Source: Candidatus Berkelbacteria bacterium Licking1014_7 (lineage in GTDB: Bacteria; Patescibacteriota; UBA1384; GWA2-35-9; CG2-30-39-44). Taken from it: a stretch of DNA of 64,000 nucleotides. The stretch's first letter is position 1; each line of letters opens with the position of its first letter. This document shows, in pieces, positions 3,317-63,049 of the stretch. A program made the position numbers and the translations under genes. The stretch lies in NCBI GenBank assembly GCA_007376535.1, contig VMGK01000005.1, positions 2,085 through 66,084 on the forward strand, given 5' to 3'. The notes under the pieces are model-generated. The model was given only the letters and a program-made list of their open reading frames with translations, did not search any database and had not been told where the DNA came from.

Positions 3317-3413
3317 GAACCCATTGCAAATCTCTCCAATCTACTACAATATGCCACATTTGGCTACAAAATACTCATCGTTCGTCATCGTCCGCCTTGG
3401 CGGATGCTTCCTC
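3317..3413 (+). mobile_element. MITE copy, 5' half only (terminal repeat GAACCCATTGCAAA), abutting and truncating the four-helix-bundle gene
   Basis: 97 bp nearly identical to 21725-21821 and 24893-24988. Confidence 0.6.
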
Positions 3414-3696
3414 TTCCGTCTCAGTGATGAGCAATCTCGCCGAGGGTTTTGAGCGCGGAACGCGCGAAGATCAAATTTATTTTTACTATATCGCCAAAGC
3501 ATCAGCCGGTGAAGTTCGTTGTCAGCTTTACATCGCGTATGACCAGAATTTCATTACAAAACAAGAATTAGACGATAACCTTACTCTTTGCAAAAAAACT
3601 TCCGCCACAATTTACCGCTTCATTGAGAGTGTAAAAGTTTCAGAGTATAAGGGTTTAAAGTTCAGAAAACCGATTAGAATTTTGGAAAAATTATGA
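3397..3696 (+). CDS. Four-helix-bundle protein (23S rRNA intervening-sequence protein family), N-terminally truncated. The first codons derive from the MITE
   Basis: SNLAEGFERGTREDQIYFYYIAKASAGEVRCQLYIA fits the IVS four-helix-bundle consensus. The usual N-terminal half is missing. Confidence 0.5.
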   Translation: MADASSSVSVMSNLAEGFERGTREDQIYFYYIAKASAGEVRCQLYIAYDQNFITKQELDDNLTLCKKTSATIYRFIESVKVSEYKGLKFRKPIRILEKL

Positions 3697-6637: not shown

Positions 6638-6760
6638 ATTAAATTAAAATTAAGAATGCAGAATGAAGAAATTAAATTATAATTAAGAAATTTTTGATTT
6701 GCCTGCCCTGCCAGAATGAAATCTACCGCGCCCGCCAAAGTGAAATCTAATTTGAGAAGA

Positions 6761-6801
6761 CCTGCCCGCCATCGCTATCGCTCAGGCGATTAGCAGGCGG
6801 G
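6761..6801 (+). repeat. REP-like nested hairpin CCTGCCCGCCATCGCTATCGCTCAGGCGATTAGCAGGCGGG
   Basis: Homologous copies at 7067-7107, 31930-31970 and, inverted, 46944-46984. Confidence 0.6.
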
Positions 6802-7169
6802 GGAATTATCACCTAATTCTGGAAGAGATTGAATGCGGGCGGGGTTATTTCAATTCTTAATTCTTCATTTTTATTTCTTATTTTGCATTTGCATTATAGC
6901 ATAAAATGGATTACAATAAAATAAAATAAAGCAATCTCAAATCTCAAATTTCAAAACATTAAAAAGATTTAAGAATATAGAATAATCCTAATTATACGAC
7001 TGACGCAAAACTACCTTTTTATATTTTCTTGGATAATCGCTAAAAGCAATCTCAAAATCCAAATCTCCCGCCCGCCATCGCTAGCGCTCAGGCGCTTAGC
7101 GGGCAGGCAAATCTCAAAGTGTAATGCAATGTCTAAAATAAAGGGGATTAAACCGCATTTTCAAATATT

Positions 7170-7356
7170 CCATATCAATTTTCAATGACACAATTTTCAG
7201 ATATTCCTGTTTGTTACATTGAAACATTGTAAATTCAATGCCTGCCCGCCATAATTGCCTGAATGGAACACGAATGAATAATTCGAGTGGAATATCAAGC
7301 AATAAAGGTGGGTAAATTGAGAATTCTAAATTGTAAATTGAATTCAAAGTTTTAAG
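7170..7356 (+). repeat. Copy 2 of the same repeat, ending 7 nt before tyrS
   Basis: See 1110-1284. Confidence 0.65.
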
Positions 7357-8553: not shown

Positions 8554-8849
8554 TATTTTAAAATTGGAAGTGAAATGGCAATAAACCCAAGTAAAGAATG
8601 CCGAGGGCAAAGCCCGATGATTCTTTACTTATATTTTGAGGTATAATTGATTTTCAGCACGCCCGCCCACTTGCATTCAATCTCTTACAATATCCTGTCA
8701 AATCCTAAATTATACAATGTCAAAGTCCAAAATCCAAAGACCAAATCAAATCCTAATGATTCAATGTCAAAGTCCAAATTTTTTGACATTAAGATTTTGG
8801 ATTTTGGTATTCATTTGGCATTTGGAACAATTTGGATTTTGACATTTAT

Positions 8850-8927
8850 TTGCCTGCCCCGTAAAATTTCTTAATTGCCTGCCCCGTAATCCGCCTCAGG
8901 CGGATGTGCGGGGTAATTTAATTTCTT
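8850..8927 (+). repeat. 78-bp palindrome-containing repeat TTGCCTGCCCCGTAAAATTTCTTAATTGCCTGCCCCGTAATCCGCC..GGCGG...CGGGGTAATTTAATTTCTT
   Basis: Second copy at 33737-33815 (upstream of pilB). This copy is upstream of argS. Confidence 0.6.
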
Positions 8928-10707: not shown

Positions 10708-10811
10708 CACGACTGACACAAAAACTTAAATGTTAGTCCTTTTATATTTTCTTGGATAATCGCTTCTCAGCACGCTCGTCGCCCCAGCACGGCTCCTCGC
10801 TCGTCCTCGCC
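10708..10811 (+). repeat. Copy of the ACGACTGAC..TTCTTGGATAATCGCTTCTCAGCACGCTCGTCGCC... repeat
   Basis: About 90% identical to 46098-46195. Supplies the predicted start of the TIGR00725-like gene. Confidence 0.6.
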
Positions 10812-11393
10812 TCGCTCGGTCGCCGCGGCGAAAAAAACAAGGATTATCTAAAGTATAAAATTGGGGTTTCAGGATCTGCCAAAGACAATTGCGCGCCCGG
10901 TGCGTTTAAGAAAGCGTATGAAGTTGGTCGTGAAGTGGCGCGCCAAGGCGCGATATTGGTCAACGGCGCGACAACTGGTATTCCGCAAAAAGCGGCCGAG
11001 GGCGCCAAACATGCCAACGGATTGGTGATTGGGATTTCGCCCGCGGTTTCTAAAAAAGAGCATTTGAGAAAATATAAACTACCGATTGATTATTGTGATT
11101 TGATTATGTATACCGGTATGGATTACGCGGGTAGAAATTTTTTGTTTATTCGCTCAACTGACGCCACAATTTATATTTGCGGACGGATCGGCACCTTAAA
11201 CGAATTTACCATTGCTTTTGAGGATAATAAACCAATTGGGATTTTAACCAATACTGGCGGCACAACCGAAGAAATTGCGGATTTGCTACGTGTGGCAAAG
11301 CGCGGAAAAGGCAAAATTGTCTGGGACGACGAGCCAAAACGATTAGTGGAAAAAGTGATAGAGATGATTAGGGAGAACGAGAATCATCATTAA
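10752..11393 (+). CDS. TIGR00725/LOG-like Rossmann-fold protein (SLOG superfamily)
   Basis: IGVSGSA, VNGATTGIP and ICGRIGTLNEF motifs. The annotated N-terminus (MDNRFSARSSPQHGSS...) is encoded by an interspersed repeat, so the true start is uncertain. Confidence 0.5.
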   Translation: MDNRFSARSSPQHGSSLVLASLGRRGEKNKDYLKYKIGVSGSAKDNCAPGAFKKAYEVGREVARQGAILVNGATTGIPQKAAEGAKHANGLVIGISPAVSKKEHLRKYKLPIDYCDLIMYTGMDYAGRNFLFIRSTDATIYICGRIGTLNEFTIAFEDNKPIGILTNTGGTTEEIADLLRVAKRGKGKIVWDDEPKRLVEKVIEMIRENENHH

Positions 11394-20848: not shown

Positions 20849-21067
20849 ATGATTCGTTTAAGAATTCCAAAACAAGTTTGCGCAATTTGCAATAAGGGTT
20901 CGGTTATCGGTTATAATCGCCCGAAATCTTTGCATCGGACTAAAAAAGTTGTCAATCCAAATTTGCAAAAAATGAAATTTGACGGCAAAATCCAAAGTTT
21001 GGTTTGCACCGGTTGTATGAGAACGATGAAGAAGAAATCAGACCCACTGCGAAATAATTTTTTGTAG
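20849..21067 (+). CDS. rpmB: 50S ribosomal protein L28
   Basis: CAICNKG...GYNRPKSLHRTKKVVNPNLQK matches the L28 family. Confidence 0.75.
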   Translation: MIRLRIPKQVCAICNKGSVIGYNRPKSLHRTKKVVNPNLQKMKFDGKIQSLVCTGCMRTMKKKSDPLRNNFL

Positions 21068-21279
21068 CGTCCCGACAAAATGTCGGGATGAGCGAAAACA
21101 ATGAGGGGCGACGAAGCGTTGTGGGTCTGTCAACAAATATGCTTTTGTAACGAAAATTGACAAATTTGTAACGAAAATTCTTAAAAGCGACGATGTTTAT
21201 CAGTTTATGATAAGCAGAGGAGCTTTTGAGGATTTGCAGTCAAAGTTGTCAATTTGCAGTCAAAATGATATTTGTTGGC

Positions 21280-21374
21280 AGACCCATTAATGGAATATAG
21301 CGTAAGGAGCCCTGAATTGTTTGCAGCCAAAATTACTATGTTGTAGTAGAAAAGGTTATTTTGCAGTGGGTCTA
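21280..21374 (-). mobile_element. Short (about 95 bp) inverted copy of the MITE
   Basis: GACCCATTAATGG ... TTGCAGCCAAAATTACTATGTTGTAGTAG ... TTGCAGTGGGTC. Its internal core is the reverse complement of the 21725 copy. Confidence 0.45.
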
Positions 21375-21659
21375 GTATAGTTTCTCCCTAAATTTTTTCT
21401 CAAAACATTCTGCGCATAGGACTGAGGCAGGGTCGCGCGGAGCAAATGGCACTTTATCTACTGATTCGCATTGAGAGCATTTGATTTGCGCTTCCAGTTC
21501 GCCTTTTTCCATTTTATCGCGAAATGATTTTCTGCACTCTGGACAACGAGATGGCGGATTTTTTAGACCTTTTTTATCAAAAAACTTTTGCTCGCCGATG
21601 GACCAGACGAAATCTTTGGCGCAATCGCGACAACTGATTTTTTTATCTTTATATTCCAT
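21372..21659 (-). CDS. Small zinc-ribbon protein (four CxxC pairs)
   Basis: CRDC...CPEC...CSQC...CAEC. Confidence 0.5.
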   Translation of the reverse strand: MEYKDKKISCRDCAKDFVWSIGEQKFFDKKGLKNPPSRCPECRKSFRDKMEKGELEAQIKCSQCESVDKVPFAPRDPASVLCAECFEKKFREKLY

Positions 21660-21724
21660 AAATTAAATTCTATCAGATAAATAAAAATTGTCAAAAATTG
21701 TTGGTTCTGCTATGATGGTTATAA

Positions 21725-21877
21725 GAACCCATGGCAAATCTCTCCAATCTACTACAATATGCCACATTTGGCTACAAAATGCTCATCGTTCGTCATCGTC
21801 CGCCTTGGCGGATGCTTCCTCACGTTTCGTATTTTTCGCTCAAATGTGATCATATTTCGCTACGATTGAGAGTTTTG
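21725..21877 (+). mobile_element. Complete MITE (153 bp) with 14-bp terminal inverted repeats GAACCCATgGCAAA / TTTGCAATGGGTTC
   Basis: Terminal inverted repeats with a single mismatch. Internal CCGCCTTGGCGG hairpin. Homologous copies at 3317, 24893, 29093, 29291 and others. Confidence 0.7.
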
Positions 21878-21904
21878 CAATGGGTTCTATGGGAGAATTC
21901 AAAT

Positions 21905-22627
21905 ATGCTTAATTTTCTGAGAGAAGAAATATACTCGTATCTGTTGATTGGCGATGAGAAAAATATTTTTGAAAATCTGATTCAGGCGCTCAGGCAAAAA
22001 GGAGTGAAGCAATACCAGATTCTGGATATATTGGATAGAGAGAAATCAATCATAACCATTGGTTGCGTCAGAAAGTTGAGAAAACAAATCAGCCAAAAGC
22101 CGTTTGACCAAAAAGATGTCTGGTATTTACTAATGAGGGCAAGTTGGCTTAAACATCCGGGCGGAATCGCAACACAAAACAGTTTGTTAAAAATTATTGA
22201 AGAGCCGCCCAAGTTTTTAAAAATTTTAATTGTTTGTCAGGATCCGAGGTTGATTTTGCCAACGATTGTGTCTCGTTGCGCGCGCGTTAGAATTGCCAAT
22301 GTCGGCCAGACCGCTATTTCCGTTGGCGAAAAAAATATTGATTTAAGGGATTTGGCAAACAAAAAATATTTTGAGATTTTTCAGTTTTCTCAAAAATTTG
22401 CCACAGATGAAAATTTGGCGGAAAAAATTGATAATTGGATAAAAGAATTTGGTAAGGGGTTGACAAAAGAAAGCGGGCGGGTTATGACAAAGAAAAGGCA
22501 AAGAATTCTAAAAGCGCTTTTGAAGGCAAAGGAGCATTTAGTAGAAACGAATGTAAACCGCAGATTGCTTTTGGATAATTTATTTTTAAAGATTAAAGAA
22601 TCTGACAGATTAAGATCCGTACAATAA
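21905..22627 (+). CDS. holB: DNA polymerase III delta' subunit-like (clamp-loader AAA+ with degenerate P-loop)
   Basis: LLKIIEEPP and TIVSRC sensor motifs. Start moved to MLNFL, downstream of the MITE. Confidence 0.6.
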   Translation: MLNFLREEIYSYLLIGDEKNIFENLIQALRQKGVKQYQILDILDREKSIITIGCVRKLRKQISQKPFDQKDVWYLLMRASWLKHPGGIATQNSLLKIIEEPPKFLKILIVCQDPRLILPTIVSRCARVRIANVGQTAISVGEKNIDLRDLANKKYFEIFQFSQKFATDENLAEKIDNWIKEFGKGLTKESGRVMTKKRQRILKALLKAKEHLVETNVNRRLLLDNLFLKIKESDRLRSVQ

Positions 22628-22630
22628 AAA

Positions 22631-23245
22631 ATGACATTTGAAATTATTATCATCTTGGCGGTAGCAATTATTTTTGTTATTTTGGTGCGTAAAATGCCTG
22701 ATGAGAGCGCGCAAAATTTAATAAAATCAGTTAAACCAAAATGGGGTTTTAGTTTGCCGAGCATAAAATTTGATTTGCCGAAAATGCCCAGATTTTCCAG
22801 TTTATCCCGCTTAGCGGGGTTAATAAAAAAAGAGCGCTCTAAGCAAAATTTTGATCCGTTTGAAGAAGAAAAGGAAAATTTGCCAGACGAGCAGAAAAAG
22901 GAATTTGACATTGAGAAATTAAAACAGGCAGATGATTGGTTGGCAGAAGGGAAAATGGACGAGGCGGAAAAAATGTATGTGCAACTTGGCGCTGAATTTC
23001 CCGGAGAACTGAGGATTTTCAATCGTTTGGGCGTGGTATATTTGAAACAGAAAAATTTTGCCGACGCGCGCGACAGTTTTTTGCAGGCGTTGAAAATTGA
23101 TGACACTCAGGCCAGCCGGCATTATAATTTGGCAATGGCATATTTGGGAATGGGGACGCGGGAAAAAGCCAGAGTATGTTTTAAGAAAGCGATTGAGATA
23201 GATCCCGGGCGAGAAAAATATCAAAAAGCGCTGGAAAAAATATAA
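22631..23245 (+). CDS. TPR-repeat protein with N-terminal TM anchor
   Basis: N-terminal hydrophobic helix and three TPR-like repeats (A..Y..G.....A...F..A). Confidence 0.6.
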   Translation: MTFEIIIILAVAIIFVILVRKMPDESAQNLIKSVKPKWGFSLPSIKFDLPKMPRFSSLSRLAGLIKKERSKQNFDPFEEEKENLPDEQKKEFDIEKLKQADDWLAEGKMDEAEKMYVQLGAEFPGELRIFNRLGVVYLKQKNFADARDSFLQALKIDDTQASRHYNLAMAYLGMGTREKARVCFKKAIEIDPGREKYQKALEKI

Positions 23246-23409
23246 GAGCCTGTCTGATAACTACTCTTGAAGCGAGAACGAGATTATTTTAGGCGAAAAA
23301 TGTGAATTGCGAGGAAAGATAGCCAAAGCTACCTTGACGAGTAATTCGCATTTTGCAGCCAAAATAAGTTATTCGCAGCTATCAGATGTAGTTATTAGAC
23401 AGGCTCTGA
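23246..23409 (-). mobile_element. MITE-family variant with 19-bp terminal inverted repeats AGAGCCTGTCTGATAACTAC / GTAGTTATTAGACAGGCTCT
   Basis: The inverted repeats flank 164 bp whose core (TTTTGCAGCCAAAAT...) matches the MITE in inverse orientation. Confidence 0.5.
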
Positions 23410-23540
23410 GGGGAATAGTTCTAAGTATCGGTTTGTTATGGGTTTGGGTGGTGATTTTGTTTTGACAGAGGAAATTTTTTAGAGTAAAATACAATTAACG
23501 CCTCCTTGCGATAGTTTTGCCTGCCCGCCAGTCGCCGAGC

Positions 23541-23616
23541 GCCGAAGTAGCTCAGTGGTTAGAGCAACTGTTTTGTAAACAGTAGGTCGTGGGTTCGAAT
23601 CCCACTTTCGGCTCCA
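23541..23616 (+). tRNA. tRNA-Thr: tRNA-Thr (anticodon TGT), CCA encoded
   Basis: GCCGAAG acceptor, anticodon loop TTTGTAA, T-loop GGTTCGAATCC, 3' CCA. Confidence 0.85.
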
Positions 23617-23843
23617 GGCAATCGGCAGGCGGGTAAACTGCCAAGGTTCCGGTTCAAGCCCGGTGGTGGGCTTAGGCGATAGCAGGCGGGTAAACTATTG
23701 GCGTCAGTTAGATTCTGACAGGGGGCTTACTCTGGCGGATTGGGGTAAACAGCCGCAGGTTTCCCGCCTGATTTTGGCAAGAAACCGATGATAAAATAAT
23801 TTTTTCATTTTTCATTTTGATTTTTAATTTGTATATAGTATAT

Positions 23844-23930
23844 GCTAGGGTTCCAGAGTGGTCAAATGGACCTGACTGTAAATCAGGTGGCTTTGTGCCT
23901 TCGGGGGTTCGAATCCCTCCCCTAGCACCA
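23844..23930 (+). tRNA. tRNA-Tyr: tRNA-Tyr (anticodon GTA), long variable arm, CCA encoded
   Basis: Acceptor GCTAGGG/CCCTAGC, anticodon loop CTGTAAA, type II variable arm, GGTTCGAATCC. Confidence 0.85.
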
Positions 23931-24012
23931 ATCGCTTCGCAGTGGAAATCCGAAATTTGAAATTTGAAGTTTAGTATATGCTATATTCGAACCGTATTAT
24001 TTTTTTTGCAAT

Positions 24013-24084
<72 letters not shown>

Positions 24085-24215
24085 AAGTAAAAATTAATTT
24101 TTCGAAATTCAAGTATTGTAATTTGAGATTTACCTATTCCGTTTTCGTAAAATGCGAAATTTCGGGATTTCTGATTTCGTGCTTTGGATTTCGAATTTAC
24201 TCCGTAGGAGTTGTT

Positions 24216-24401
24216 GTGCCAAAAAATAAAAAAAGACCATCAATTTATTTGAAATGCGAAAAGTGCAAAAGTTTGAATTATTTGTCAGTTCGCAGTGTCA
24301 TTAATACTCCGGAAAAATTGGAATTGAAAAAATTCTGCAAAAAATGCCGGGCGCACACTTTGCATAAAGAAGCGAAAATTTCCAAGCCCCGTAAGAAATA
24401 A
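24216..24401 (+). CDS. rpmG: 50S ribosomal protein L33
   Basis: CEKC...TPEKLELKKFCKKC...HKEAKI matches L33. GTG start 5 nt after TAGGAG. Confidence 0.8.
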   Translation: MPKNKKRPSIYLKCEKCKSLNYLSVRSVINTPEKLELKKFCKKCRAHTLHKEAKISKPRKK

Positions 24402-24553
24402 ACCGAAAAGATTGAGTTAAGCAAGATGTATATTGCAATCGCGAGAATATAACCAATCAAGCCAAGAGAACAAATTTCTAACGGGGCAAGGCGAAGAAGT
24501 AAGAATCACCAATATTGTTTGTATCTTGTAATTTGGAATTTATGAAAAACTAC

Positions 24554-24627
24554 GGGGGCGTGGGTTAGTGGTAAACTATCGGTCTCCAAAACCGATGCCG
24601 GAGGTTCGATTCCTCCCGCCCCTGCCA
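24554..24627 (+). tRNA. tRNA-Trp: tRNA-Trp (anticodon CCA), CCA encoded
   Basis: Acceptor GGGGGCG/CGCCCCT (G-U closing pair), anticodon loop CTCCAAA, GGTTCGATTCC. Confidence 0.8.
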
Positions 24628-24892
24628 GTTGGTAAAAGAAGAGTTTGGCTCGGTCGCCACAGGCGACCTCGCCAGCCGATTTTTGGTTCAAAATCAAATT
24701 TTTTGCCTTTGTCCCCCACTAAATTTTAGTGGGGGACGCCAGAAGCGGGTTTTTCCTTAAAGTCCGCACAAAGCTTGGCTTGACCCGAGACGATTTAGTG
24801 AGAAAGTCAGCCGTCCAACACACAACCCTTACAAAAATTGAGAGTAATGTGATGAGAGTAATGTGATTAAAAAACCGTCGGTTATTACTCTG

Positions 24893-24988
24893 AACCCATT
24901 GCAAATCTCTCCAATCTACTACAATATGCCACATTTGGCTACAAAATACTCATCGTTCGTCATCGTCCGCCTTGGCGGATGCTTCCTC
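24893..24988 (+). mobile_element. MITE copy (5' half) between tRNA-Trp and the methyltransferase gene
   Basis: About 97% identical to 3317-3413. Confidence 0.6.
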
Positions 24989-25006
24989 AGACTTGATTAA
25001 ATAAAT

Positions 25007-26011
25007 ATGGAAACAAAATCAAAAAATCGAGCATCAAGAAATAGAACCATAACTTTAGATAATGGCGAGATTTCTCGCTTGAGAAAGAAACTTGTCAAAA
25101 TAGATAAGCCGGTTTCTATTTCGGATATTGAGAATAAAACTATCAATCAAGATATTTTTCAGATTTTGGATTTTTTGCCAGATAATTTTGTTAATTTAGT
25201 TTTTGTAGACCCACCTTATAACTTAAACAAAACTTTTAACTTAACTGCTTTTAAGGCAATGGAGTCCGAAAAGTATGAGGAGTGGTTAGATTCGTGGGTT
25301 CAAAAAATAATCCGTTTATTAAAACCAAATGCATCGGTTTATATTTGTGGTGATTGGAAATCATCGGGAGCAATTTTTAATGTGGTAAAAAAATATTTTC
25401 AAATTCAAAATAGAATAACTTTTGAAAGAGAAAAAGGGCGGGGCGCAAAATCAAATTGGAAAAATTGCTCGGAAGATATTTGGTTTTGTACATTTTCAGA
25501 CAAGTATAACTTTGATGTTGATGCGGTAAAAATGACAAGGAAAGTTATTGCTCCATACAAAGACGAAAACGGAAATCCGAAAGATTGGGAAATAACGGAA
25601 AATGGAAATTATCGCATAACCCATCCCTCTAATATTTGGACCGACATTACAATTCCCTTTTGGTCTATGCCAGAAAATACTGACCACCCGACACAAAAAC
25701 CAGAAAAATTGGTTGCCAAAGTTATTTTGGCCAGTTCAAAACCAAATGATATTGTTTTTGATCCGTTTCTTGGTTCAGGCACAACATCTGTTGTGGCAAA
25801 AAAACTTGGTCGTAAATATGTTGGTATTGATATAGATGAATTATATTGTTGTTTGGCAGAAAAACGGCTTGAGATGGTTGATAATGACAAGACAATTCAG
25901 GGATATTCTGACGGAGTTTTTTGGGAAAGGAATACATTAAACGAACAAAATAATGGTAAAAATAAAAAGTCGGAAAATAATCATAATTTACTTTTTGATA
26001 AACTATTATAA
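25007..26011 (+). CDS. β-class N4C/N6A DNA methyltransferase (full length)
   Basis: VFVDPPYNL (motif IV) then HPTQKP...DPFLGSGTT (motif I). Confidence 0.85.
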   Translation: METKSKNRASRNRTITLDNGEISRLRKKLVKIDKPVSISDIENKTINQDIFQILDFLPDNFVNLVFVDPPYNLNKTFNLTAFKAMESEKYEEWLDSWVQKIIRLLKPNASVYICGDWKSSGAIFNVVKKYFQIQNRITFEREKGRGAKSNWKNCSEDIWFCTFSDKYNFDVDAVKMTRKVIAPYKDENGNPKDWEITENGNYRITHPSNIWTDITIPFWSMPENTDHPTQKPEKLVAKVILASSKPNDIVFDPFLGSGTTSVVAKKLGRKYVGIDIDELYCCLAEKRLEMVDNDKTIQGYSDGVFWERNTLNEQNNGKNKKSENNHNLLFDKLL

Positions 26012-26013
26012 AT

Positions 26014-26673
26014 ATGAAAAGTCAAATATTTTACGCAGATGAGTATAAAAAATTAGAAAAGAAAATCACCGAGTTTCTTAATTCTCAAACTGATTTTTTA
26101 TCTCCACGCACAATCGACAGCCCTCGAGCTGTCGGCGACGCAATACAGGATTTATTGGCAGATAATTTTGGTAAAATTCTAGGCGATTTAAGCTCAAATT
26201 ATTCTTCGGATTTTGCCAGACGCGCCATGGCGGATTTAGCCTTTAATGACAAAGATGGGTTTTATTATGTTGTTGATGTAAAAACCCATAGATTAGATTC
26301 AAGTTTCAATATGCCAAATCTTACATCAGTTGAAAGATTGGCAAGATTTTATGAAGATGATAAAAATTATTTCATAGTATTAAAAACCGATTATAAAATT
26401 CAAAAAACAAAAATAATTATAGACAAAGTTAATTTCGTTCCGATTGAATTTTTGGGCTGGGATTGTTTGACGCTTGGTGCTCTCGGTTGGGGGCAAATAC
26501 AAATCGCTAATTCAAATAATGTTAGTATAGTTGCTAAAAACAGCAGAAAAAAGTGGATGTTGGAATTATGTGATTCTCTTTTTGAATTTTATCCAAGAGA
26601 GATTGGAAAAATAAACGACAGAATTTTATATTTCAAGCGTGTTAGAAAATACTGGGAAGGTAAAAAGGGATAA
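26014..26673 (+). CDS. Putative type II restriction endonuclease (PD-(D/E)xK)
   Basis: Begins 3 nt after the methyltransferase stop. D...VDVK arrangement (DLAFNDKDGFYYVVDVKTH) fits PD-(D/E)xK. No other homology recognisable. Confidence 0.5.
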   Translation: MKSQIFYADEYKKLEKKITEFLNSQTDFLSPRTIDSPRAVGDAIQDLLADNFGKILGDLSSNYSSDFARRAMADLAFNDKDGFYYVVDVKTHRLDSSFNMPNLTSVERLARFYEDDKNYFIVLKTDYKIQKTKIIIDKVNFVPIEFLGWDCLTLGALGWGQIQIANSNNVSIVAKNSRKKWMLELCDSLFEFYPREIGKINDRILYFKRVRKYWEGKKG

Positions 26674-27127
26674 TGAAGAATTCGCCGCCCCTTCGATCCA
26701 TTCAACGAGTTCAGGGTCGCACTGAGGAAATCGAAGGGCGATAAACTCAGGGCAGTTTTGGGCGAAATCTGTTCGGATTTTGTTCAAACAGACACCGCCA
26801 TATCTTGTTTTCAGGGAGGTGGAGGCAATGCGATTTAGCAGTAGAAGTTCTTTAACAAGAAGGCAAAGACGAAATAGAAAATTGAGCCGAACAAGGACAA
26901 ATAAGAGATTGAGACAAATGAGCAGCGGCGATTATTACATCTTATATTGTGTATTAAAACAAGCCAAGCGGGAAGAAGAACGAAAATGAAATGGCTGGTA
27001 GTAGTGTGCGATCCTAATCTTTATTGTGGTTGCTTCGGAATCAGTATCTCAATGTTTGGCGTCTAAATATGCCCCAAATGTTAAGCCGCCGATCGCATCT
27101 TTGATGTTTTAGGGCAGGTCAATTATA

Positions 27128-27161
27128 GCGGTAAAAAGAAATACTTTTTCCGCTTTTTTTT
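27128..27161 (+). terminator. Hairpin plus T-run (GCGGTAAAAAG-AAATA-CTTTTTCCGC TTTTTTTT)
   Basis: 10-bp stem followed by eight T residues. Confidence 0.4.
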
Positions 27162-27226
27162 ATTTCAACAATTTCAACAATGTTTCGATGTGACGACTAA
27201 TTCCAGAATTTAGTGCAACTTTGGTT

Positions 27227-28030
27227 TTATTTTTTGATAAATTTCTGCGCAAGTTTGGCGATAACGGCGCTGGAATCATTTTTTTCAAAAGCGCGCAGGA
27301 TTTCGATCGGTATAGCAAAAATTACAGTGTTTGATTGATCTGACGAAAGATCGTTTAAGGTATTTAAAGTTCTAAGATGCAGGGCGCCGGTTGATGATGA
27401 CAATGTTTGCGCCGCCTTGGCTAAATTTTTTGAGGCGATCACTTCACCTTCTGCTTTGGTGATAACCGCGCGTTTTTCTCGTTCTGCCTCTGCTTGTTTG
27501 GCAATCACCCGTTGCATTTCTTGCGGAAGGGAAACATCTTTCAGGTCAACATTTTCCACAGTGATGCCCCAAGGATCAGTGAGTTTGTCAACAATGGTCT
27601 TAATCTGATTAGACACATCGTCGCGTTTGGAAAGCAAAGTGTCCAGATCAACTGAGCCAACAATATTTCGCATCGTGGTTTGGGCTATCTGCGAGATAGC
27701 GTAGTAAAAATTTTCCACTTCAAGTACAGCTTTCGACACATCAGCAACTTTGTAGTAAATGACCGCGTTGATTTTGACTGAAATATTATCGCGCGTGATG
27801 GCTTCTTGGTCTGGCACATCCACTGCTTTGACACGAATATCCACTTTGATTAGCGATTCAATGATTGGCAAAATTAGTCGCCAGCCCGGATTAATAATAT
27901 TGACAAATTTTCCCAGCCGAAATTTGACACCGCGTTCAAATTGGTTAATTTGGCGAATACTAACCAGGATTATGATTAAAATTACAATCGCTATAACTGA
28001 AAGGATGAGAGTGTCTAAAAAAAAGTTCAT
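27227..28030 (-). CDS. SPFH/band-7 (stomatin/prohibitin-like) membrane protein
   Basis: N-terminal TM then the characteristic RGVKFRLGKF...DLK..SLP and coiled-coil EAEREKRA region. Confidence 0.8.
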   Translation of the reverse strand: MNFFLDTLILSVIAIVILIIILVSIRQINQFERGVKFRLGKFVNIINPGWRLILPIIESLIKVDIRVKAVDVPDQEAITRDNISVKINAVIYYKVADVSKAVLEVENFYYAISQIAQTTMRNIVGSVDLDTLLSKRDDVSNQIKTIVDKLTDPWGITVENVDLKDVSLPQEMQRVIAKQAEAEREKRAVITKAEGEVIASKNLAKAAQTLSSSTGALHLRTLNTLNDLSSDQSNTVIFAIPIEILRAFEKNDSSAVIAKLAQKFIKK

Positions 28031-28155
28031 AATTTTTTTTGTTTATTTTTGTTTATTTATGATATTATACAAAGAAATTGAGAAAGATGTCAAGGGATCC
28101 AATTTTGTGATGATTTTTAGAGGACTTTGTGATATATTTGTGATATAATACAATT

Positions 28156-28461
28156 ATGCAGAAAGAAAAAAATAAATTTCCCAAATTCTTAAAACGATAT
28201 TTTTGGGACACGGATTTTTCATTGCTTGATAGGCAAAAAAACCAAAAATATATTATTGAGCGGATTTTGGATTGGGGCGATGAACAGGGTATTGAATGGT
28301 TGTTTCAGACCTATTCAAGCCAAGAAATTAAAGCGGTGGTATTAACATCGCGAGAATTATTTAAGAAAAGCATTAATTTTTGGGGAATCATTTTAGAGTT
28401 AGGAGAAAAATGGAGGAAAGAGGCATTAGCGAAAAGACAAAACAAAATTTGGAATTATTAG
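28156..28461 (+). CDS. Small hypothetical protein upstream of and overlapping the AbiEii-like gene (possible antitoxin partner)
   Basis: 101-aa ORF with a 52-nt overlap with the downstream gene. No recognisable domain. Confidence 0.35.
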   Translation: MQKEKNKFPKFLKRYFWDTDFSLLDRQKNQKYIIERILDWGDEQGIEWLFQTYSSQEIKAVVLTSRELFKKSINFWGIILELGEKWRKEALAKRQNKIWNY

Positions 28462-29051
28462 CCAAAACACATTTTATTGGACAATTTTATTTAGCCGGCG
28501 GAACGGCTTGCGGTTTGTATTTTGGGCACAGAATTTCTTATGATTTAGATTTTTTTTCCGAGCGAAAATTTAACGCGCAGAAAATCAGAGATGAGTTAGA
28601 AAAAATGGGCGAACTCAAAATAGACATTATTGACGAAAATACTTTTTTGGGTTTTTTGAATAAAGTAAAGATAAGTTTTTTTTATTATAAATATCCGCTG
28701 ATTGGCGAGACGCAGGTCTATAGAGGGGTGAGGATTGTTTCAAAAAAGGACTTGCAGGCAATGAAAATTGACGCTTTGCAGTCGCGCGGCACAAAAAGGG
28801 ACTTTATTGATTTGTATACGATTTTGCAAGCAGATAATTATTCTATAAAAAACGCATTAGATAATTTTAAGGAAAAATACCAAAAGGCAAATTATAATAT
28901 GGAGCATATTTTGATGAGTTTGGTATATTTTGAAGACGCGGATAGGGATAATCGTCTCAATATGTTGGTATCATACGACTGGGAAAAAATAAAAAATTAT
29001 TTTATTGAGGACGTTAAAGCATACGAAAAAAATAGATTAAAAATCGATTAA
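28410..29051 (+). CDS. AbiEii/AbiGii-family nucleotidyltransferase (DUF1814-like) toxin candidate
   Basis: LAGGTACGLYFGHRISYDLDFF resembles the GG(T/S)AL...R.S.DIDF motif of AbiEii toxins. AGGAG RBS 4 nt upstream. Confidence 0.5.
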   Translation: MEERGISEKTKQNLELLAKTHFIGQFYLAGGTACGLYFGHRISYDLDFFSERKFNAQKIRDELEKMGELKIDIIDENTFLGFLNKVKISFFYYKYPLIGETQVYRGVRIVSKKDLQAMKIDALQSRGTKRDFIDLYTILQADNYSIKNALDNFKEKYQKANYNMEHILMSLVYFEDADRDNRLNMLVSYDWEKIKNYFIEDVKAYEKNRLKID

Positions 29052-29092
29052 ACAGGCTCTAAGGAGGGAAATTGGCGCGGCATTATCCCTTA

Positions 29093-29290
29093 GAACCCAT
29101 TTCAAAAATCCATATATTGCACATCCATCGTCTGGCTGAATGGGCAGCTGCAACAGCAGATATTCTGGCTGCAAAGATTAGAATAATTCGTCAACAGAGC
29201 TTCTGGCTATGCTTCCTCATTATTCTAACTTTTCGCTCATAATCTCTACTGTTTCGCTCCTCAATCAACCAGACGATGGATGTGGGTTCT
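29093..29290 (+). mobile_element. Complete MITE copy (about 198 bp)
   Basis: Begins GAACCCATTTCAAA and ends GGATGTGGGTTC. Confidence 0.55.
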
Positions 29291-29424
29291 TTTATCTGCT
29301 ATTTTGGCTGCAAACAATTCAGAGCTCGTCAGTGTCCGCCAAGGCGGATGCCTTCTCGCTCTTCATTGTTTTCGCTCAAAATATCAAATAAAATTATCAA
29401 AAGAGAGTTTTATAATGGGTTCCT
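29291..29424 (+). mobile_element. Second, 5'-truncated MITE copy in tandem. Its 3' terminal repeat TTTTATAATGGGTTC contains the ATG of the downstream gene
   Basis: TTTTGGCTGCAAA ... TCCGCCAAGGCGGATGC ... TTTCGCTCAAA ... ATAATGGGTTC. Confidence 0.55.
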
Positions 29425-31862
29425 ACAATTCGTTTGAGAATTTTATTCATAAAATAAAAAGGCGAACTTATTTATCGTTATTTTTGTCGGTTTTGGTGGT
29501 GGTTGGTTTTGGCGCGGGATTGATTTTTTGGTCTAAAAATGTTTCACGCGGGGCGACTACTTTAAGTGGAACTATCAATGGCTTACGGACAATTAGCGGA
29601 GACGCGGTGATCAAGACCAACCAAACAGTCACTCACGATCAGGGAAATACTACCGGAGGAACAGGATTGGGAGTGAATGTGAGTGGCACTTTAACCTTGG
29701 AAGCCGGCGCCAAAATTGATGTGAGCGGGAAGGGATATAAGGGGGGATATATTTTTTTTAGCATGAATAATATAGGTGGTTATTATTATACAGCTTTATT
29801 TCCGGCTAAGGGAAGCAAGGATGGCAACGCTCCTCAACAGCAAAATCAAGCTGGTGCCGGCGGAGACTGGGAAAATGGCGGGGCAGGCGGCGGCACAGGA
29901 TATAGAACGGCAAATAGACTGGGCGTTGGCGGCGGCGGCGGCGGCGCGTTTGGCTATGGCTCAGGCGGAAAAACCAACCATTCTTCGGCAAGCCCTGGAT
30001 GTTATGGCGGCGGCGGCGCGGGCTGGAAAGGCAAGGGCGGGGCAGGCGTTTGTTCTGGATCGGCGGTTAACGGTGCAGTAAGCGCCAGCATAAATTTTTC
30101 TAATGACAGTTGGTATAATAACGAGATTCTTTTTGGCGCTGGCGGCGCCAGCGGATTTACCATTACGCAGGATAACTCGGAGGGTGATGGCGGCAACAGT
30201 GAATGCGTCAAAGGCGGCAATGGCGGAGGGGCGGTAAAAATAAAAGCCAAAAAATTAAAAATTGAATCCGGGGCAAGCATATCGGCGGCAGGAAAATCGG
30301 GCGGAAAAATGTGCGATCTGGCTTATAGAGTAAAGTGGTTAACTTTTGGACAATTTACTTTGGGAGCGGCTGGGGGAGGCGGAACAATTTATATTGAGGT
30401 TGACGAATTGGAATTGCCTAGCGGTAATGATTATAATTTTGATGTTTCAGGCGGCGATGGTTGGGGGGCGCTGAGCGGGTCGATGTGGGCATCTTCCGGA
30501 GCAGGAGGCGGAGGGATAGTTGTAATTAGAATCGCAGGGGGAGGAAAAATAAAAATCGGGAATAATTATGTAGATAACTTTGCGACGGTTTACGCCAGAG
30601 CAGATTCCAACAAAGGCATGCTTCGCAATATCATAAACGATGTTTATATTTTAACCCAGAAAATACCTGATAGTGCTTGGGGGGGAGACGGCAAAGAAAT
30701 TTTTGCCGGCAATCCGACCATTCCCGGTGGTTCCACCACCTGCGACACATCAAAAATTAAATTGACTGATCCGTCGTTTTCCAGCCAACCGGCGGCGAAT
30801 TCTCATTACCAGCGCGGTGATACTTTTTCCTATAAGGCGCAATATATTAGTCAAGACAGCGGTTCAAATTGTTCTGGCAAGTATCAATTATATTTCCAGA
30901 CCGCTTTATCAAATGATTTAGAATTTATTGGTGGCAGTAAATTGACTCCCGGAAATTTAGATCCAACAATAGGTGGCGGTTTATTTTCAACTCAACATTG
31001 GGAAGTAAATTCAGCCGGTTCTTACACTGGTGATATTAAGATAAAAATAAAAGATAATGCTTGCAATCAGGCAGGCGGCGGCGTTGAGAACAAAATTCAA
31101 ATTTATCAAAAATACGATAATGGTGTGCTGATGGCGCCATCATCAGGAAATCCAGTTTACTCTAATGCGAATATAATTGTTGATTGTCCGGGCGTGGCGA
31201 TTTCCGGCAATGTTGGCGCAAGCAGTATAACTACGCCCGATCTAAAAATTATCGGTAATTCAGTGGTGGCGATTACGGGTTCCTCGTCAGCCACGCTTGA
31301 TTCACAAGTAGTAAATTTATCTGGTTATACCCATTCAATCAATTTTTCCGACATAAATACAAATTTTGAAGCGCTAAAAACCCGGCGGGCAATTAAGCCG
31401 AATCCTTGGACAAATAATTTTAATTTGAATAAGTACAATAAACCCGAAGGTGGAGTGTGGAAAGAACATCCTACCCCTATGAATAGAACTTTTCTGCAAG
31501 GGTCGCGAGGCACGATATTTCATACTGGCGATTTGACAATAGATGGAATTTCTTGGCAAGGCGCGACGGCTGGTGTTTTGGGCATCGTGGTGAAAGATGG
31601 TAATGTGATGATCAAAGATTTAAATTTAAAAAATGTGGCGATTTACGCGTACGACACCGGTGGCGCGGAAGACGGAAAAATCACTTTTGGCACGGGCGCA
31701 ACGGACGAAACATTAGACATGACCGGTTCGTTTGTCGCTAAAAGCATTGAAATTAAAAGTAAGAAGGGTAATATTAAACATTCGGACGGATTAGATAAAA
31801 ATCCTCCGCCCGGATTTTCTAACTTGCAGTCGCAAATAAAAATTTTAGAAAAAGCGCGGTAG
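29415..31862 (+). CDS. Large glycine-rich secreted/surface protein (N-terminal signal anchor, predicted β-helix/adhesin-like)
   Basis: TM segment LSLFLSVLVVVGFGAGLIFW followed by long GGxGGxG tracts and NxxG repeats. Confidence 0.55.
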   Translation: MGSYNSFENFIHKIKRRTYLSLFLSVLVVVGFGAGLIFWSKNVSRGATTLSGTINGLRTISGDAVIKTNQTVTHDQGNTTGGTGLGVNVSGTLTLEAGAKIDVSGKGYKGGYIFFSMNNIGGYYYTALFPAKGSKDGNAPQQQNQAGAGGDWENGGAGGGTGYRTANRLGVGGGGGGAFGYGSGGKTNHSSASPGCYGGGGAGWKGKGGAGVCSGSAVNGAVSASINFSNDSWYNNEILFGAGGASGFTITQDNSEGDGGNSECVKGGNGGGAVKIKAKKLKIESGASISAAGKSGGKMCDLAYRVKWLTFGQFTLGAAGGGGTIYIEVDELELPSGNDYNFDVSGGDGWGALSGSMWASSGAGGGGIVVIRIAGGGKIKIGNNYVDNFATVYARADSNKGMLRNIINDVYILTQKIPDSAWGGDGKEIFAGNPTIPGGSTTCDTSKIKLTDPSFSSQPAANSHYQRGDTFSYKAQYISQDSGSNCSGKYQLYFQTALSNDLEFIGGSKLTPGNLDPTIGGGLFSTQHWEVNSAGSYTGDIKIKIKDNACNQAGGGVENKIQIYQKYDNGVLMAPSSGNPVYSNANIIVDCPGVAISGNVGASSITTPDLKIIGNSVVAITGSSSATLDSQVVNLSGYTHSINFSDINTNFEALKTRRAIKPNPWTNNFNLNKYNKPEGGVWKEHPTPMNRTFLQGSRGTIFHTGDLTIDGISWQGATAGVLGIVVKDGNVMIKDLNLKNVAIYAYDTGGAEDGKITFGTGATDETLDMTGSFVAKSIEIKSKKGNIKHSDGLDKNPPPGFSNLQSQIKILEKAR

Positions 31863-32121
31863 TCAAATATAAATCAAAAAGCAAATCCGCCAGCTGGCGG
31901 ATTAATCTCAAATCTCAAAATTCAAATCTCCCGTCCGCCATCGCTATCGCTCAGGCGATTAGCGGGCAGGCAAAATGACAATCCAAAATTCAAAACTCTA
32001 AATCCTAAATTCTAAATTCTAAGAAAATTATGTTCCCCATTTTCAACAACATCAATCACCAAAAATTTGACAAGCAAAACGGTTAGGTTGTATAATAGAG
32101 TTAATCAAAAGGAGAGGGAAA

Positions 32122-33596: not shown

Positions 33597-33736
33597 GATA
33601 GAAATTCAAATCTCAAATCTCAAATCTCAAAGCCACAGCGTAAAACTTAAAACCATTTTAAATTATCTAAGTTTTTACATTTGAGTTGTGGTTTTGAGTT
33701 TTACGTTTTAACATTTATGATTAAATTAATGTCATT

Positions 33737-33815
33737 TTGCCTGCCCCGTAAAATTTCTTAATTGCCTGCCCCGTAATCCCGCCAAGGCGGGATCTTCGGG
33801 GTAATTTAATTTCTT
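33737..33815 (+). repeat. Second copy of the 78-bp repeat
   Basis: See 8850-8927. Confidence 0.6.
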
Positions 33816-45062: not shown

Positions 45063-45149
45063 ACAATCTGGGCTCGCAATAACCAAAATAAAAAAATTTG
45101 ACAATTTTTTGTTTTTGTGTAATAATGGAATAGACTTCTTCCGGAATAA

Positions 45150-45300
45150 TTTTTCGTAGCGAAACGCAGTAATTTTGAGCGAAAATTGTGAAGAACGAGG
45201 AAAGGTATATGGAATATCCATTGACGAGTTATGAACAATTTGCAGCCAAAATTACAAGTTGTAGTAGAAAAGGTTATTGTGGAAGAAGTCTAACAAAAAA
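45150..45300 (-). mobile_element. Degenerate inverted MITE copy downstream of the pilus operon
   Basis: TTTGCAGCCAAAATTACAAGTTGTAGTAG and GCGAAAATTGTGAAGAACGAGGAAAG match the MITE core in reverse. Confidence 0.4.
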
Positions 45301-45469
45301 TAATCCGTAGACAGCAAGCGAGGTTCAGATTTCTGATTTTGGAAGAAGTCTAGTAAGTCTTGCCGAGGAAATATTGTTAAATTGTTTTTAACCTTGAATT
45401 TCGTAATTCAAGGTATTTAATCAATATTTACCAACTGCGGAAACCGCAGTTTTTTAAAACGGGAACAAT

Positions 45470-46097: not shown

Positions 46098-46195
46098 TAC
46101 GACTTACGCAAAATTCGGCTTTATGTTATATTTTCTTGGATAATCGCTTCTCAGCACGCTCGTCGCCCCAGCGTGGCTCCTCGCTCGTCCTCGCC
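46098..46195 (+). repeat. Interspersed repeat family (ACGACTtACgCAAAA ... TTCTTGGATAATCGCTTCTCAGCACGCTCGTCGCCCCAGC..GGCTCCTCGCTCGTCCTCGCC) in the rplJ-rplL spacer
   Basis: Copies at 10708-10811 and, truncated, at 6996-7041. Confidence 0.6.
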
Positions 46196-46402
46196 TATAG
46201 ATTTTCCGCCAGAGGCGGATCTGCCTTTGGCATGACACTTTGACGGGCAGGCATTTTGATTTATCATTTTTGATATTTGATTTATTATTGTGTTATTAGA
46301 AAATATTATACGAAATTACGAAAATTAAAATAATTTTAACTTTGGGTTGTCATTTTGCATTTTGAGATTTGCATTTTGCATTTGACGACCGAAGGGAGGA
46401 AC

Positions 46403-46849: not shown

Positions 46850-47044
46850 ATTTCAATTCAACCAGAATTTCAATGTTAGATGCTATATTTTAGAATATTA
46901 AAATGATATTCAAATTTTTAGAAATAAATTTTAAATTTTACATTGTCATTTTGCCTGCCCGCTAATCGCCTGAGCGATAGCGATGGCGGGCGGGAGATTT
47001 GTGTCTTACATTTTGAGATTGAGGCAATTTCTATCAAATCAAAT

Positions 47045-49417: not shown

Positions 49418-49846
49418 ATGGCGCAAGCAATATTAGATAAATCAGGGGGTAAAGAGAGTAAAGACGGCGCAAATTCAGTAACAGAACGGGAAAATGTAAC
49501 CGGTGCAACCGACGCGCAAGGTGAAAAAATAACCACAGCAACAGAAGCGAATTTATCGCAAACAGAAACAATAGTAGATAAAGATGTGACAGAAACACCA
49601 GTAATCGCTGGAAAAACCGAAACCGCGTCAGCGCCTGACGCAACAGTTGAAGTGGGCAATTTGCCAGAAGCGCCAAGCCAAAGCCAACCCGGCGCAGAAG
49701 AAAAAGTGATATTGACAGATACAACGGTCTATCCGGGTAGTAAGGAAAATTTAGCGGATGCTCATATTGCAGATGATTTTGTAAAAAGATTGTTAGCATT
49801 AAAAGAAGCCAACGAAAATCAAGGAGATGGGACAGAACAAGTTTAA
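49418..49846 (+). CDS. Acidic Thr/Glu-rich low-complexity protein preceding the first VirD4-like ATPase
   Basis: ORF-track start at 49286 runs through AT-rich tandem repeats and a REP hairpin. First plausible ATG is at 49418. Confidence 0.35.
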   Translation: MAQAILDKSGGKESKDGANSVTERENVTGATDAQGEKITTATEANLSQTETIVDKDVTETPVIAGKTETASAPDATVEVGNLPEAPSQSQPGAEEKVILTDTTVYPGSKENLADAHIADDFVKRLLALKEANENQGDGTEQV

Positions 49847-49980
49847 TCTCAAATCTCAAAATTCAAAATGACAATGTAAAATTCAAAATGATTTTGCATT
49901 TTGGATTATATTAAGCGATTTTTTCCCGCACTGCGATACGGGCGGGAATGCCAAGGCGGGGGAGTGTTAACAAAATTAAG

Positions 49981-62847: not shown

Positions 62848-63049
62848 AGTTCAAATATAACAAATTATTGTCTAAAAAACAAATCTCAAAAAGCAAAAGT
62901 TTTTTGACTTAAGATTTTTGATACTACGTTTCTCGGTTACTGCAACGATGCCCGTATCGTCTGACGTCTGACGTATTACGAAATTCATTCTAAAATCATA
63001 AATCCATATTCTTAAATCTTTTTAATGTTTTGAATTTTGAGATTTGAGA

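Follow-up and report, generated by a model that had tools for sequence, protein, structure and literature searches.

The question raised by this locus is what the repeated DNA at 29093-29422 is, and what it does to the gene into which it runs, which encodes an 815-aa glycine-rich membrane-anchored protein (29415..31862, + strand, from the gene calls of two assemblies). The window, by which we mean the whole 64-kb stretch of Candidatus Berkelbacteria bacterium Licking1014_7 DNA that was analysed, holds at least nine copies or fragments of the same element of about 160 nt. The segment is very probably made up of two nested copies of a non-autonomous DNA transposon (MITE) with IS5-type ends, belonging to a Patescibacteria family. 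MITEs of this kind are well known; the family itself is uncatalogued and unusually structured, and no prior description of such an element in Patescibacteria was found in the literature.

The repeat pair and its relatives in the window

The two units at 29093-29424 share the blocks TTTTGGCTGCAAA ... TCGTCA-hairpin-CTTCCTC ... TTTTCGCTCAAAAT. A covariance model built from the alignment of the element family, R1, matches both units, at 29152-29252 in copy D (74.1 bits, E 1e-17) and at 29291-29391 in copy E (85.5 bits, E 9e-21). Further core matches lie at 21755-21855, 23277-23375(-), 45163-45262(-) and 21154-21256(-), with half-copy matches at 3347-3438 and 24922-25016, and E values in the window range from 1e-13 to 2e-22. 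R1 recovers five full cores (A, B, C, D and E), one divergent full copy (I) and two 5' halves (G and H); the ninth copy, F, was spotted by eye and is split by copy I within its apical hairpin. The copies at 23.3 kb, 45.2 kb and 21.3 kb were found by pattern search and reading of both strands, and a repeat finder pairs 29303-29380 with 3359-3436, 21767-21844 and 24934-25011 (families D3 and D4). When the copies are aligned by hand the blocks are kept, and the intervening and surrounding sequence varies in complementary fashion. The claim that the segment is repeated elsewhere, on which the sequence-only reading had made itself depend, is borne out by the other window copies and by copies that R1 finds in Patescibacteria genomes.

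Copy A is complete (21725..21887, +, 87.5 bits with R1) and lies between a zf_Tbcl gene and holB. Copy C (23246..23406, -, arms AGAGCCTGTCTAATAACTAC/GTAGTTATCAGACAGGCTCT, 82.7 bits) is situated between a TPR gene and a tRNA cluster, and copy B (45133..45290, -, arms TAGACTTCTTCC/GGAAGAAGTCTA, 91.8 bits) between a pilX-like gene and an L10 leader. Copy B is 89.7% identical to copies of another MAG, and approximately 70-75% identical to the other window copies. Its arm GGAAGAAGTCTA is repeated 60 nt away inside the predicted L10 leader (window 45278-45349, +); the leader match at 45287-45428 scores 46.6 against a threshold of 44 bits, and it overlaps the MITE arm at its 5' end. Copy F (total 21041..21372, -, in two parts, 21372-21286 and 21122-21041) is interrupted by the nested copy I (21285-21123, -, 60 bits). 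Of copies H (24892..24988, +) and G (3317..3413, +) the window holds the 5' half alone, and G abuts a truncated gene whose ORF may be four-helix-bundle-like. The two half copies are 99% identical and end at the same cut, just after the CTTCCTC loop 3' of hairpin P4, and the DNA downstream of the cut differs between them. Their common cut could be a recurrent breakpoint or a copied fragment.

Two copies had been recognized before the glycine-rich gene by the sequence-only reading, as a complete and a 5'-truncated copy placed head to tail. The count of two stands; the truncation and the head-to-tail geometry do not, since 29093-~29111 is the 5' arm that the second copy had seemed to lack. The 5' part of the outer copy E (29093..29119, +) consists of a terminal arm, GAACCCATTTCAAAAATCC, and 8 nt, with TTA before it (29090-29092). 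The inner copy D (29120..29289, +) has a complete core and a perfect 16-bp closing stem (CACATCCATCGTCTGG/CCAGACGATGGATGTG); its 3' tip TGGGTTC is present and its 5' tip (GAACCCA) is absent, the first ~6-7 nt having been lost. The remainder of E (29290..29422, +) carries the core TTTTGGCTGCAAA ... TCGTCA-hairpin-CCTTCTC ... TTTTCGCTCAAAAT and the 3' arm GAGAGTTTTATAATGGGTTC, followed by CTA. The 19-nt arm at 29093-~29111 is complementary to the last 20 nt of E at ~29402-29422, matching its reverse complement at 15 of 18 positions, and it is homologous to the 5' arm of copy A beyond the shared GAACCCAT. Removal of D leaves a 5' region of ~45 nt in E, against 44 nt in copy A. The minimum free energy fold of 29088-29428 (-118.8 kcal/mol, z = -8.9) pairs 29093-29101 with 29414-29422 around two rods. 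Because of this complementarity and the homology with the arm of copy A, nesting is the better reading of the two copies, D having apparently entered E and lost its 5' tip.

It is possible, but in our view unlikely, that the geometry is tandem after all, with a complete copy at 29093-29289 that bears a ~22-nt insertion in its 5' arm, followed by a copy at 29290-29422 that has no 5' arm. The tip GGGTTC at the 3' end of the inner copy (...GGATGTGGGTTC) could pair with GAACCC at 29093, the TTT after this end resembles a TWA flank, and beside CACATCC the inner copy lacks a 5' tip. However, the supposed 22-nt insertion corresponds precisely to the arm missing from the second copy under this scheme, and a second, unambiguous nested pair, I in F, is present in the same window.

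The nested pair is accompanied by an orphan 3' arm, ATTAAACAGGCTCT, at 29047..29060 (+). This exact 14-mer is the reverse complement of AGAGCCTGTTTAAT, which belongs to another subfamily; it overlaps the AbiEii stop codon, is followed by AAG, and is the same arm as that seen in L078, L047 and L055 and at IS5 termini. The 380 nt before the gene accordingly hold an orphan 3' arm, the outer copy E and the inner copy D, from which it follows that the site has been struck at least three times. The earlier suggestion of a hotspot for insertion agrees with this and with the second nested pair at 21041-21372. Comparable arrangements are seen in other genomes, as a tandem array of two and a half copies with a 185-nt period (L005, 3037-3450) and as a copy interrupted in its 5' region (L076, ~1750-2010), and clustering of copies is therefore a trait of the family.

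The Licking1014_7 genome is rich in short dispersed repeats. A second, GC-rich palindromic family (…CCCGCCCGCCATCGCTAGCGCTCAGGCGCTTAGCGGGCAGGCAAA) occurs in the window at 6742-6805, 7048-7111, 31904-31995 and 46929-47020, and also at 8849-8903 and 33736-33790; one such palindrome, terminator-like in look, lies about 40 nt past the stop codon of the glycine-rich gene. Two intergenic repeat pairs are 97% identical (1152-1267 with 7218-7333, and 10742-10812 with 46126-46196), and AT-rich, heptamer-like runs of the AATCTCA type are found at 1276-1327, 6933-6986, 33602-33664, 49845-49900 and 62998-63051. A direct repeat of 234 nt (51958-52191 and 55110-55343, 73% identical), inside two large ORFs of 837 and 974 aa, probably reflects paralogous domains.

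The start codon and the promoter question

The observation that the repeat ends at the start codon of the glycine-rich gene proved accurate, as ATG 29415-29417 lies inside the element end, within the last 8 nt of copy E (ATGGGTTC, end 29422). The codon is contained in the 3' arm (...TATAATGGGTTC), and the first codons, ATG GGT TC, are the terminal repeat of E itself. Both available annotations start the 815-aa ORF at this ATG, downstream of which no other canonical start occurs before the membrane anchor. The position of the gene is syntenic, before pilN in L115, and residue 5 of the homologue P0002 (38% identical, from the syntenic locus of a related bacterium) aligns to window residue 6. Because the two gene calls agree and the homology with P0002 extends from residue 6, comparison at the sequence level shows ATG 29415, inside the terminal repeat of E, to be the predicted true start, and a real start far downstream does not agree with homology that begins so early.

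Just upstream of E, at 29061..29074 (+), is AAGGAGGGAAATTG, a strong Shine-Dalgarno sequence (AAGGAGG) with a TTG, which was compared with GGAGGGTATG in L115. It is possibly the displaced original initiation region of the gene; with the element taken out, however, its TTG does not share the frame of the present gene. The sequence now found upstream of ATG 29415 is GAGAG, a weak ribosome-binding-like stretch.

Promoter capture had been proposed for this junction, in which an outward promoter of the elements now drives the glycine-rich gene. Such an effect would be compatible with the MITE reading, concerning as it does the consequence of insertion only. The 363 nt from the AbiEii stop to the ATG are nearly all MITE sequence, so that a dedicated promoter must lie within the element unless transcription enters from the toxin-antitoxin genes; and while the homologous gene of L115 is preceded by a TATAAT/GGAGGG-ATG region of its own, with no element in 14 kb, that region is missing here. 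Against this, a sigma-70 consensus scan of the + strand over 28900-29600 returned no sigma-70-like site, the only TATAAT (29411-29416) overlaps the ATG, and the family has no orientation bias relative to downstream genes. Capture of a promoter is consequently not what these results favour, and we regard it as improbable. The element can be shown to give the gene its start codon and, just 5' of that codon, the GAGAG stretch, rather than a promoter.

A similar placement of the element end is seen at three other loci, in three other genomes, where GAACCCAT-type arms carry an outward ATG that continues in frame into a downstream ORF: L063 (-) at 2308, L090 (+) at 1670 and L093 (+) at 1582, with ORFs of 286, 136 and 147 aa, respectively. 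By their N-terminal motifs these ORFs are presumably holB-, RuvX- and L11-like. The in-frame ATGs in other genomes therefore indicate that these ends repeatedly land, and are tolerated, at translation starts. The junction GGGTTC-T-ATG occurs at five independent sites, and in copy A (window 21880) this ATG begins an ORF of 10 codons, which overlaps with the start of holB.

Mobility, distribution and an IS5-family partner

Comparison of the presence and absence of the elements, as had been recommended for the junction, shows the syntenic locus L115 to be free of E/D, and of copies A and C as well. A second assembly, L114, drawn from the same population, does not differ from the window between 24989 and 42685. 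It contains a full-length copy H and, after it, 35 nt that the window lacks; H lies within an HTH_3 gene located upstream of a methyltransferase, and the extra 35 nt restore the HTH_3 reading frame across the insertion site. Relative to L114, the window carries a 105-nt deletion that starts right after CTTCCTC, the same cut point as in copy G. This XRE/HTH_3 gene, upstream of an N6/N4 methyltransferase (window 24700-25006, L114 1-194) and probably the controller of a restriction-modification system, has been wrecked in three ways: by a frame shift from a 14-nt tandem duplication (GAGAGTAATGTGAT twice, 24847-24874), by the insertion of copy H and, in the window assembly, by the 105-nt deletion, which removes its 3' end. 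The adjoining island at 24.9-29.05 kb comprises the methyltransferase and a 219-aa gene, an SPFH/Band_7 gene, and a DUF6922 and AbiEii toxin-antitoxin pair. It replaces the L33 gene and a 172-aa gene of L115 (4.9-5.9 kb) and lies between copy H at one border and the orphan arm plus E at the other. In total the MITE family makes up ~2% of the 64-kb stretch.

The pattern TGGCTRCAAA-N9-13-TCGTCA-N30-50-TTTCGC was scanned against one genome per species and returned at least 113 stretches. Some 85% of the matches listed are in MAGs labelled as Patescibacteria lineages (Saccharibacteria, Parcubacteria/Paceibacterota, Moranii-, Berkel-, Kaiser-, Peregrini-, Magasanik-, Falkow-, Shapiro-, Kuenen-, Taylor- and Uhrbacteria), and all of the Patescibacteria matches listed share the full architecture. 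A few are in MAGs deposited under the labels Bdellovibrionales or Gammaproteobacteria; pattern matches in other phyla fall in coding DNA, where R1 scores nothing. With R1 above 40 bits, at least ~105 further copies were found in the genome loci, nearly all labelled Patescibacteria, and several MAGs hold at least 5-6 copies each. Viral contigs yielded a single match to the core pattern, which spans 83 nt against 63-73 nt in the family and is probably due to chance, and gave no sign of carriage by phage.

Among the matches listed, 78 of the 86 genome copies are intergenic and overlap no ORF. With respect to their neighbours, 24 are co-directional in the sense orientation, 26 are antisense, 13 lie between divergent genes and 11 between convergent genes. 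The neighbours are diverse housekeeping genes, with no recurrent transposase, reverse transcriptase, integrase or other gene beside the 86 copies, and near-identical subfamilies occupy unrelated gene contexts in different genomes. A cis-regulatory leader or riboswitch was considered for the element and is excluded by the random orientation and the diverse, non-recurrent neighbours. In L059 (1346-3088) two inverted MITE copies surround a glutamate dehydrogenase gene in a composite-transposon-like arrangement, and apart from this pair no long inverted pairs with TWA flanks were seen in the genome loci.

With element ends set by the outermost complementarity, lengths are regular at 158-172 nt (183-206 nt where a subtype has an additional 5' hairpin), and the terminal inverted repeats have arms of 16-25 bp in 78 instances. 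The termini read G...C and fall into the classes GAGCCTGT, GACCTCTTGC, GAACCCAT, GAGGTCAT and GGAACCTC. The flank profile of 56 copies is T (40/56), W, A (41/56) before the G...C unit and T (48/56), W, A after it; TTA..TTA occurs ten times and TAA..TAA five times, and inverted combinations are few. A 3-bp direct repeat flanks 23 of 71 copies, compared with 7.4±2.3 in shuffled pairings, none of 500 shuffles being as high, and repeats of 2, 4 or 5 bp show no enrichment. The window flanks themselves are imperfect (E TTA/CTA, A TAA/TAT, C TCA/TTA, B TTA/TAT, D none). Duplications of 3 bp at AT-rich sites are made by PIF/Harbinger and IS5 elements (PMC4122938).

When the terminus AGAGCCTGTTYAAWATCT was scanned against metagenome contigs, three loci were found with both termini ~870 bp apart. 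The corresponding IS5-family insertion sequence, of ~840-870 bp, is represented by L237 (253-1092), L169 (629-1499), L134 (576-1443) and L194 (108-975), the last known from its terminus positions alone. In L169 and L134 the transposase is encoded by two ORFs, DUF4096 and DDE_Tnp_1, and its match to NCBIfam NF033580 (IS5 family) is split into 1-86 and 84-257 of 258, as expected for a frameshifted gene. A fused homologue, P0075 (78% identical), is annotated in a Candidatus Spechtbacteria MAG; its contig, L237, carries an 840-bp insertion sequence with ends AGAGCCTGTTCAAAATCTTTT and the complement, flanked by TAA..TAA. Two of the three insertion-sequence copies with flanks read have TAA..TTA, and the copy in L169 interrupts a 211-aa ORF (64-699). 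The termini of these insertion sequences (L169, L134 and L237) are identical to the AGAGCCTGT-type MITE arms. No insertion sequence was found with the GAACCCAT-type termini (GAACCCATTGCAAATC and complement) of copies E, A, G and H, and there is no transposase in the 64-kb window or beside any of the 86 genome copies.

The interior of the MITE is not derived from the IS5-family insertion sequence. Other hairpin MITEs, of ~143-165 bp, share the AGAGCCTGTTTAAWATCT termini and the TTA/TAA flanks, and have different, GC-richer interiors to which R1 gives no match (metagenome contigs L119, L124, L125, L135, L139, L141, L150, L173 and L184). The R1 core is present at 6 places in loci carrying the AGAGCCTGTTTAAWATCT terminus, in 5 of the 100 loci searched. 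Different interiors between the same ends imply that the Patescibacteria core is one of several cargoes.

The initial description of these repeats as MITEs is upheld by several properties of the family: the elements are small (158-206 nt) and have no conserved ORF, with variation that follows pairing rather than codons; they end in inverted repeats and are flanked by TWA, with 3-bp repeats in excess; they are present in many copies; and an autonomous IS5-family element shares termini with the AGAGCCTGT-type arms. The regular ends, the TWA duplication and the IS5 partner therefore qualify the elements as MITEs, in the AGAGCCTGT-type subfamilies at least. On this basis the history of the locus may be proposed as follows. 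A family with G...C ends (GAGCC.../GACC.../GAACCC... and complement) would have proliferated in the Berkelbacteria genome by insertion at T-W-A sites with a 3-bp duplication, which is the signature of an IS5/PIF-Harbinger-type DDE transposase, and mobilization in trans is presumably provided by the IS5-family insertion sequences that share these termini. An older element may have left its 3' arm alone at 29047-29060. The outer copy E would have landed in or beside the first codons of the glycine-rich pilus-cluster gene, so that its terminal repeat (...GAGAGTTTTATAATGGGTTC) now supplies the sole canonical in-frame start beside the conserved N-terminus, and copy D would have inserted into E later.

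Patescibacteria have tiny genomes that are usually described as poor in mobile DNA. Here, one MITE family borders a defence island, splits what is probably a restriction-modification regulator, and has taken over the translation start of a conserved pilus-cluster gene. Metagenome assemblies are broken by the family as well, since several contigs end inside copies, and the covariance model is therefore useful for annotating and curating Patescibacteria genomes.

The conserved fold and relation to known elements

The whole element has a conserved, covarying rod fold. RNAalifold predicts, from 78 full-length instances, one long rod composed of an outer stem P1, a stem P2, a helix UUGGC..AAA / UUU..GC.CAA with the internal loop UGC/UC, a stem P3, an asymmetric loop UCGUCA/CUUCCUC and the apical hairpin P4. 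Compensatory changes are observed in 40 of the 47 predicted pairs. In the core alignment of 91 R1 matches, 90.8% of cells are paired, versus 66.1% in shuffled alignments and 32-46% with slid partners; 23 of 28 core pairs have changed on both sides, and the covariation score is 0.578 versus 0.135, a value reached in none of 500 shuffles. Single copies fold far better than shuffled sequence (copy A, -62.3 kcal/mol, z = -8.6). The covarying core is present in Saccharibacteria, Parcubacteria, Berkelbacteria, Peregrinibacteria and others, and the two asymmetric, pyrimidine-rich loops, UGC/UC and UCGUCA/CUUCCUC, are conserved across classes. Overall, G-U and A-C combinations number 76 and 95, respectively, counts that favour neither strand; at the P4 position 51/103 there are 34 G-U/U-G pairs and no A-C.

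These features could conceivably mark the element as primarily a structured non-coding RNA, either a small RNA gene or a module on neighbouring messages, for which the inverted-repeat ends and the spread would be secondary and whose conserved loops the host would use to bind protein or RNA. The 40 compensated pairs, the covariation score, the fold z-scores of copy A and of the nested pair, the G-U/U-G pairs without A-C at 51/103 in P4 and an interior that is not derived from the insertion sequence are all in keeping with such a role. We nevertheless consider it distinctly improbable, as copies have neither an orientation bias to genes nor a conserved neighbour, are truncated, nested and inserted in genes, and show no conserved promoter or terminator and no Rfam family. 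With Rfam 15, no copy is matched at the gathering score in the whole window, nor at E<=10 over 21100-29500. Moreover, the otherwise invariant loops decay in divergent copies, TCGTCA to TCCTCA or TTCTCA and CTTCCTC to CTTCGGC or CTTCAAA, which fits a constraint on propagating lineages rather than on each resident copy. Resemblances to 6S RNA, SRP RNA, a ribozyme, a retron and a Cas12a repeat were also considered and rejected; these were short, remembered likenesses with no support from models.

A second way to account for the fold is transposition as folded single-stranded DNA by a HUH/Y1 enzyme, of the REPIN-RAYT or IS200/IS605 type, or through an RNA intermediate. A hairpin that runs the whole length of the element and has conserved loops is what selection by structure-recognising enzymes would be expected to produce; copies insert into the hairpins of other copies (I in the P4 loop of F), and the breaks in the two half copies coincide, immediately 3' of hairpin P4. 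Elements of this type, however, have no target duplication or long terminal inverted repeats, both of which are present in this family. The termini equal those of a DDE IS5-family element, and neither a Y1 transposase nor a reverse transcriptase is found in the window or near the copies. This mode of movement is, in our estimate, highly improbable.

For a MITE mobilized by a DDE transposase, the fold is most likely conserved through a constraint on the propagation of the element or on its tolerance inside transcripts. DDE cut-and-paste transposition, which needs the termini alone, leaves the covariation of the interior and its fixed loops unexplained. One tentative suggestion, to which we would give a small chance, is that the ~100-nt core is a functional module, being either a structured RNA used by the host or a folded single-stranded intermediate of IS5-type MITEs. 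If true, the first version would point to, for example, a protein-binding or message-stabilising element used by Patescibacteria, and the second would lie outside the accepted picture of DDE cut-and-paste. The conservation of the fold is a concrete question for work on MITE transposition and on structured RNA in the superphylum.

Among known systems, the family is most readily compared with the Tourist-like MITEs of the IS5-PIF-Harbinger group, which likewise are small and non-coding, share their terminal inverted repeats with a DDE element, make a 3-bp TWA duplication, occupy AT-rich sites near genes and show nested insertions and hairpin potential (PMC4122938). The present family is unlike them in that its interior is unrelated to the insertion sequence, is conserved across many Patescibacteria classes, covaries and has fixed asymmetric loops, and in that subfamilies with the termini GAGCC, GACC, GAACCC, GAGGTC and GGAACC share one core, with a partner for one type. 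Hairpin MITEs of ~162 bp from outside the Patescibacteria (L119, L125, L139, L150, L173 and L184) resemble it in termini, length, TTA/TAA flanks and rod-like complementarity, and differ in their interior.

Correia elements of Neisseria are hairpin MITEs of ~100-160 bp with a TA-containing duplication, which lie beside genes and at the borders of variable islands and are co-transcribed. They can alter the expression of neighbours, with documented promoter and RNase III effects, and are confined to one genus. The two families are alike as hairpin MITEs scattered beside genes and have no sequence relation. ERIC/IRU, REP/REPIN and the Rickettsia palindromic elements are imperfect palindromic intergenic repeats that occur in either orientation, sometimes inside genes, and keep their hairpins over long times. 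REPINs are moved by RAYT (HUH) enzymes without duplication, and we know of no transposase for ERIC or the Rickettsia palindromic elements. From these palindromic repeats the present family is set apart by its IS5-type ends and TWA flanks.
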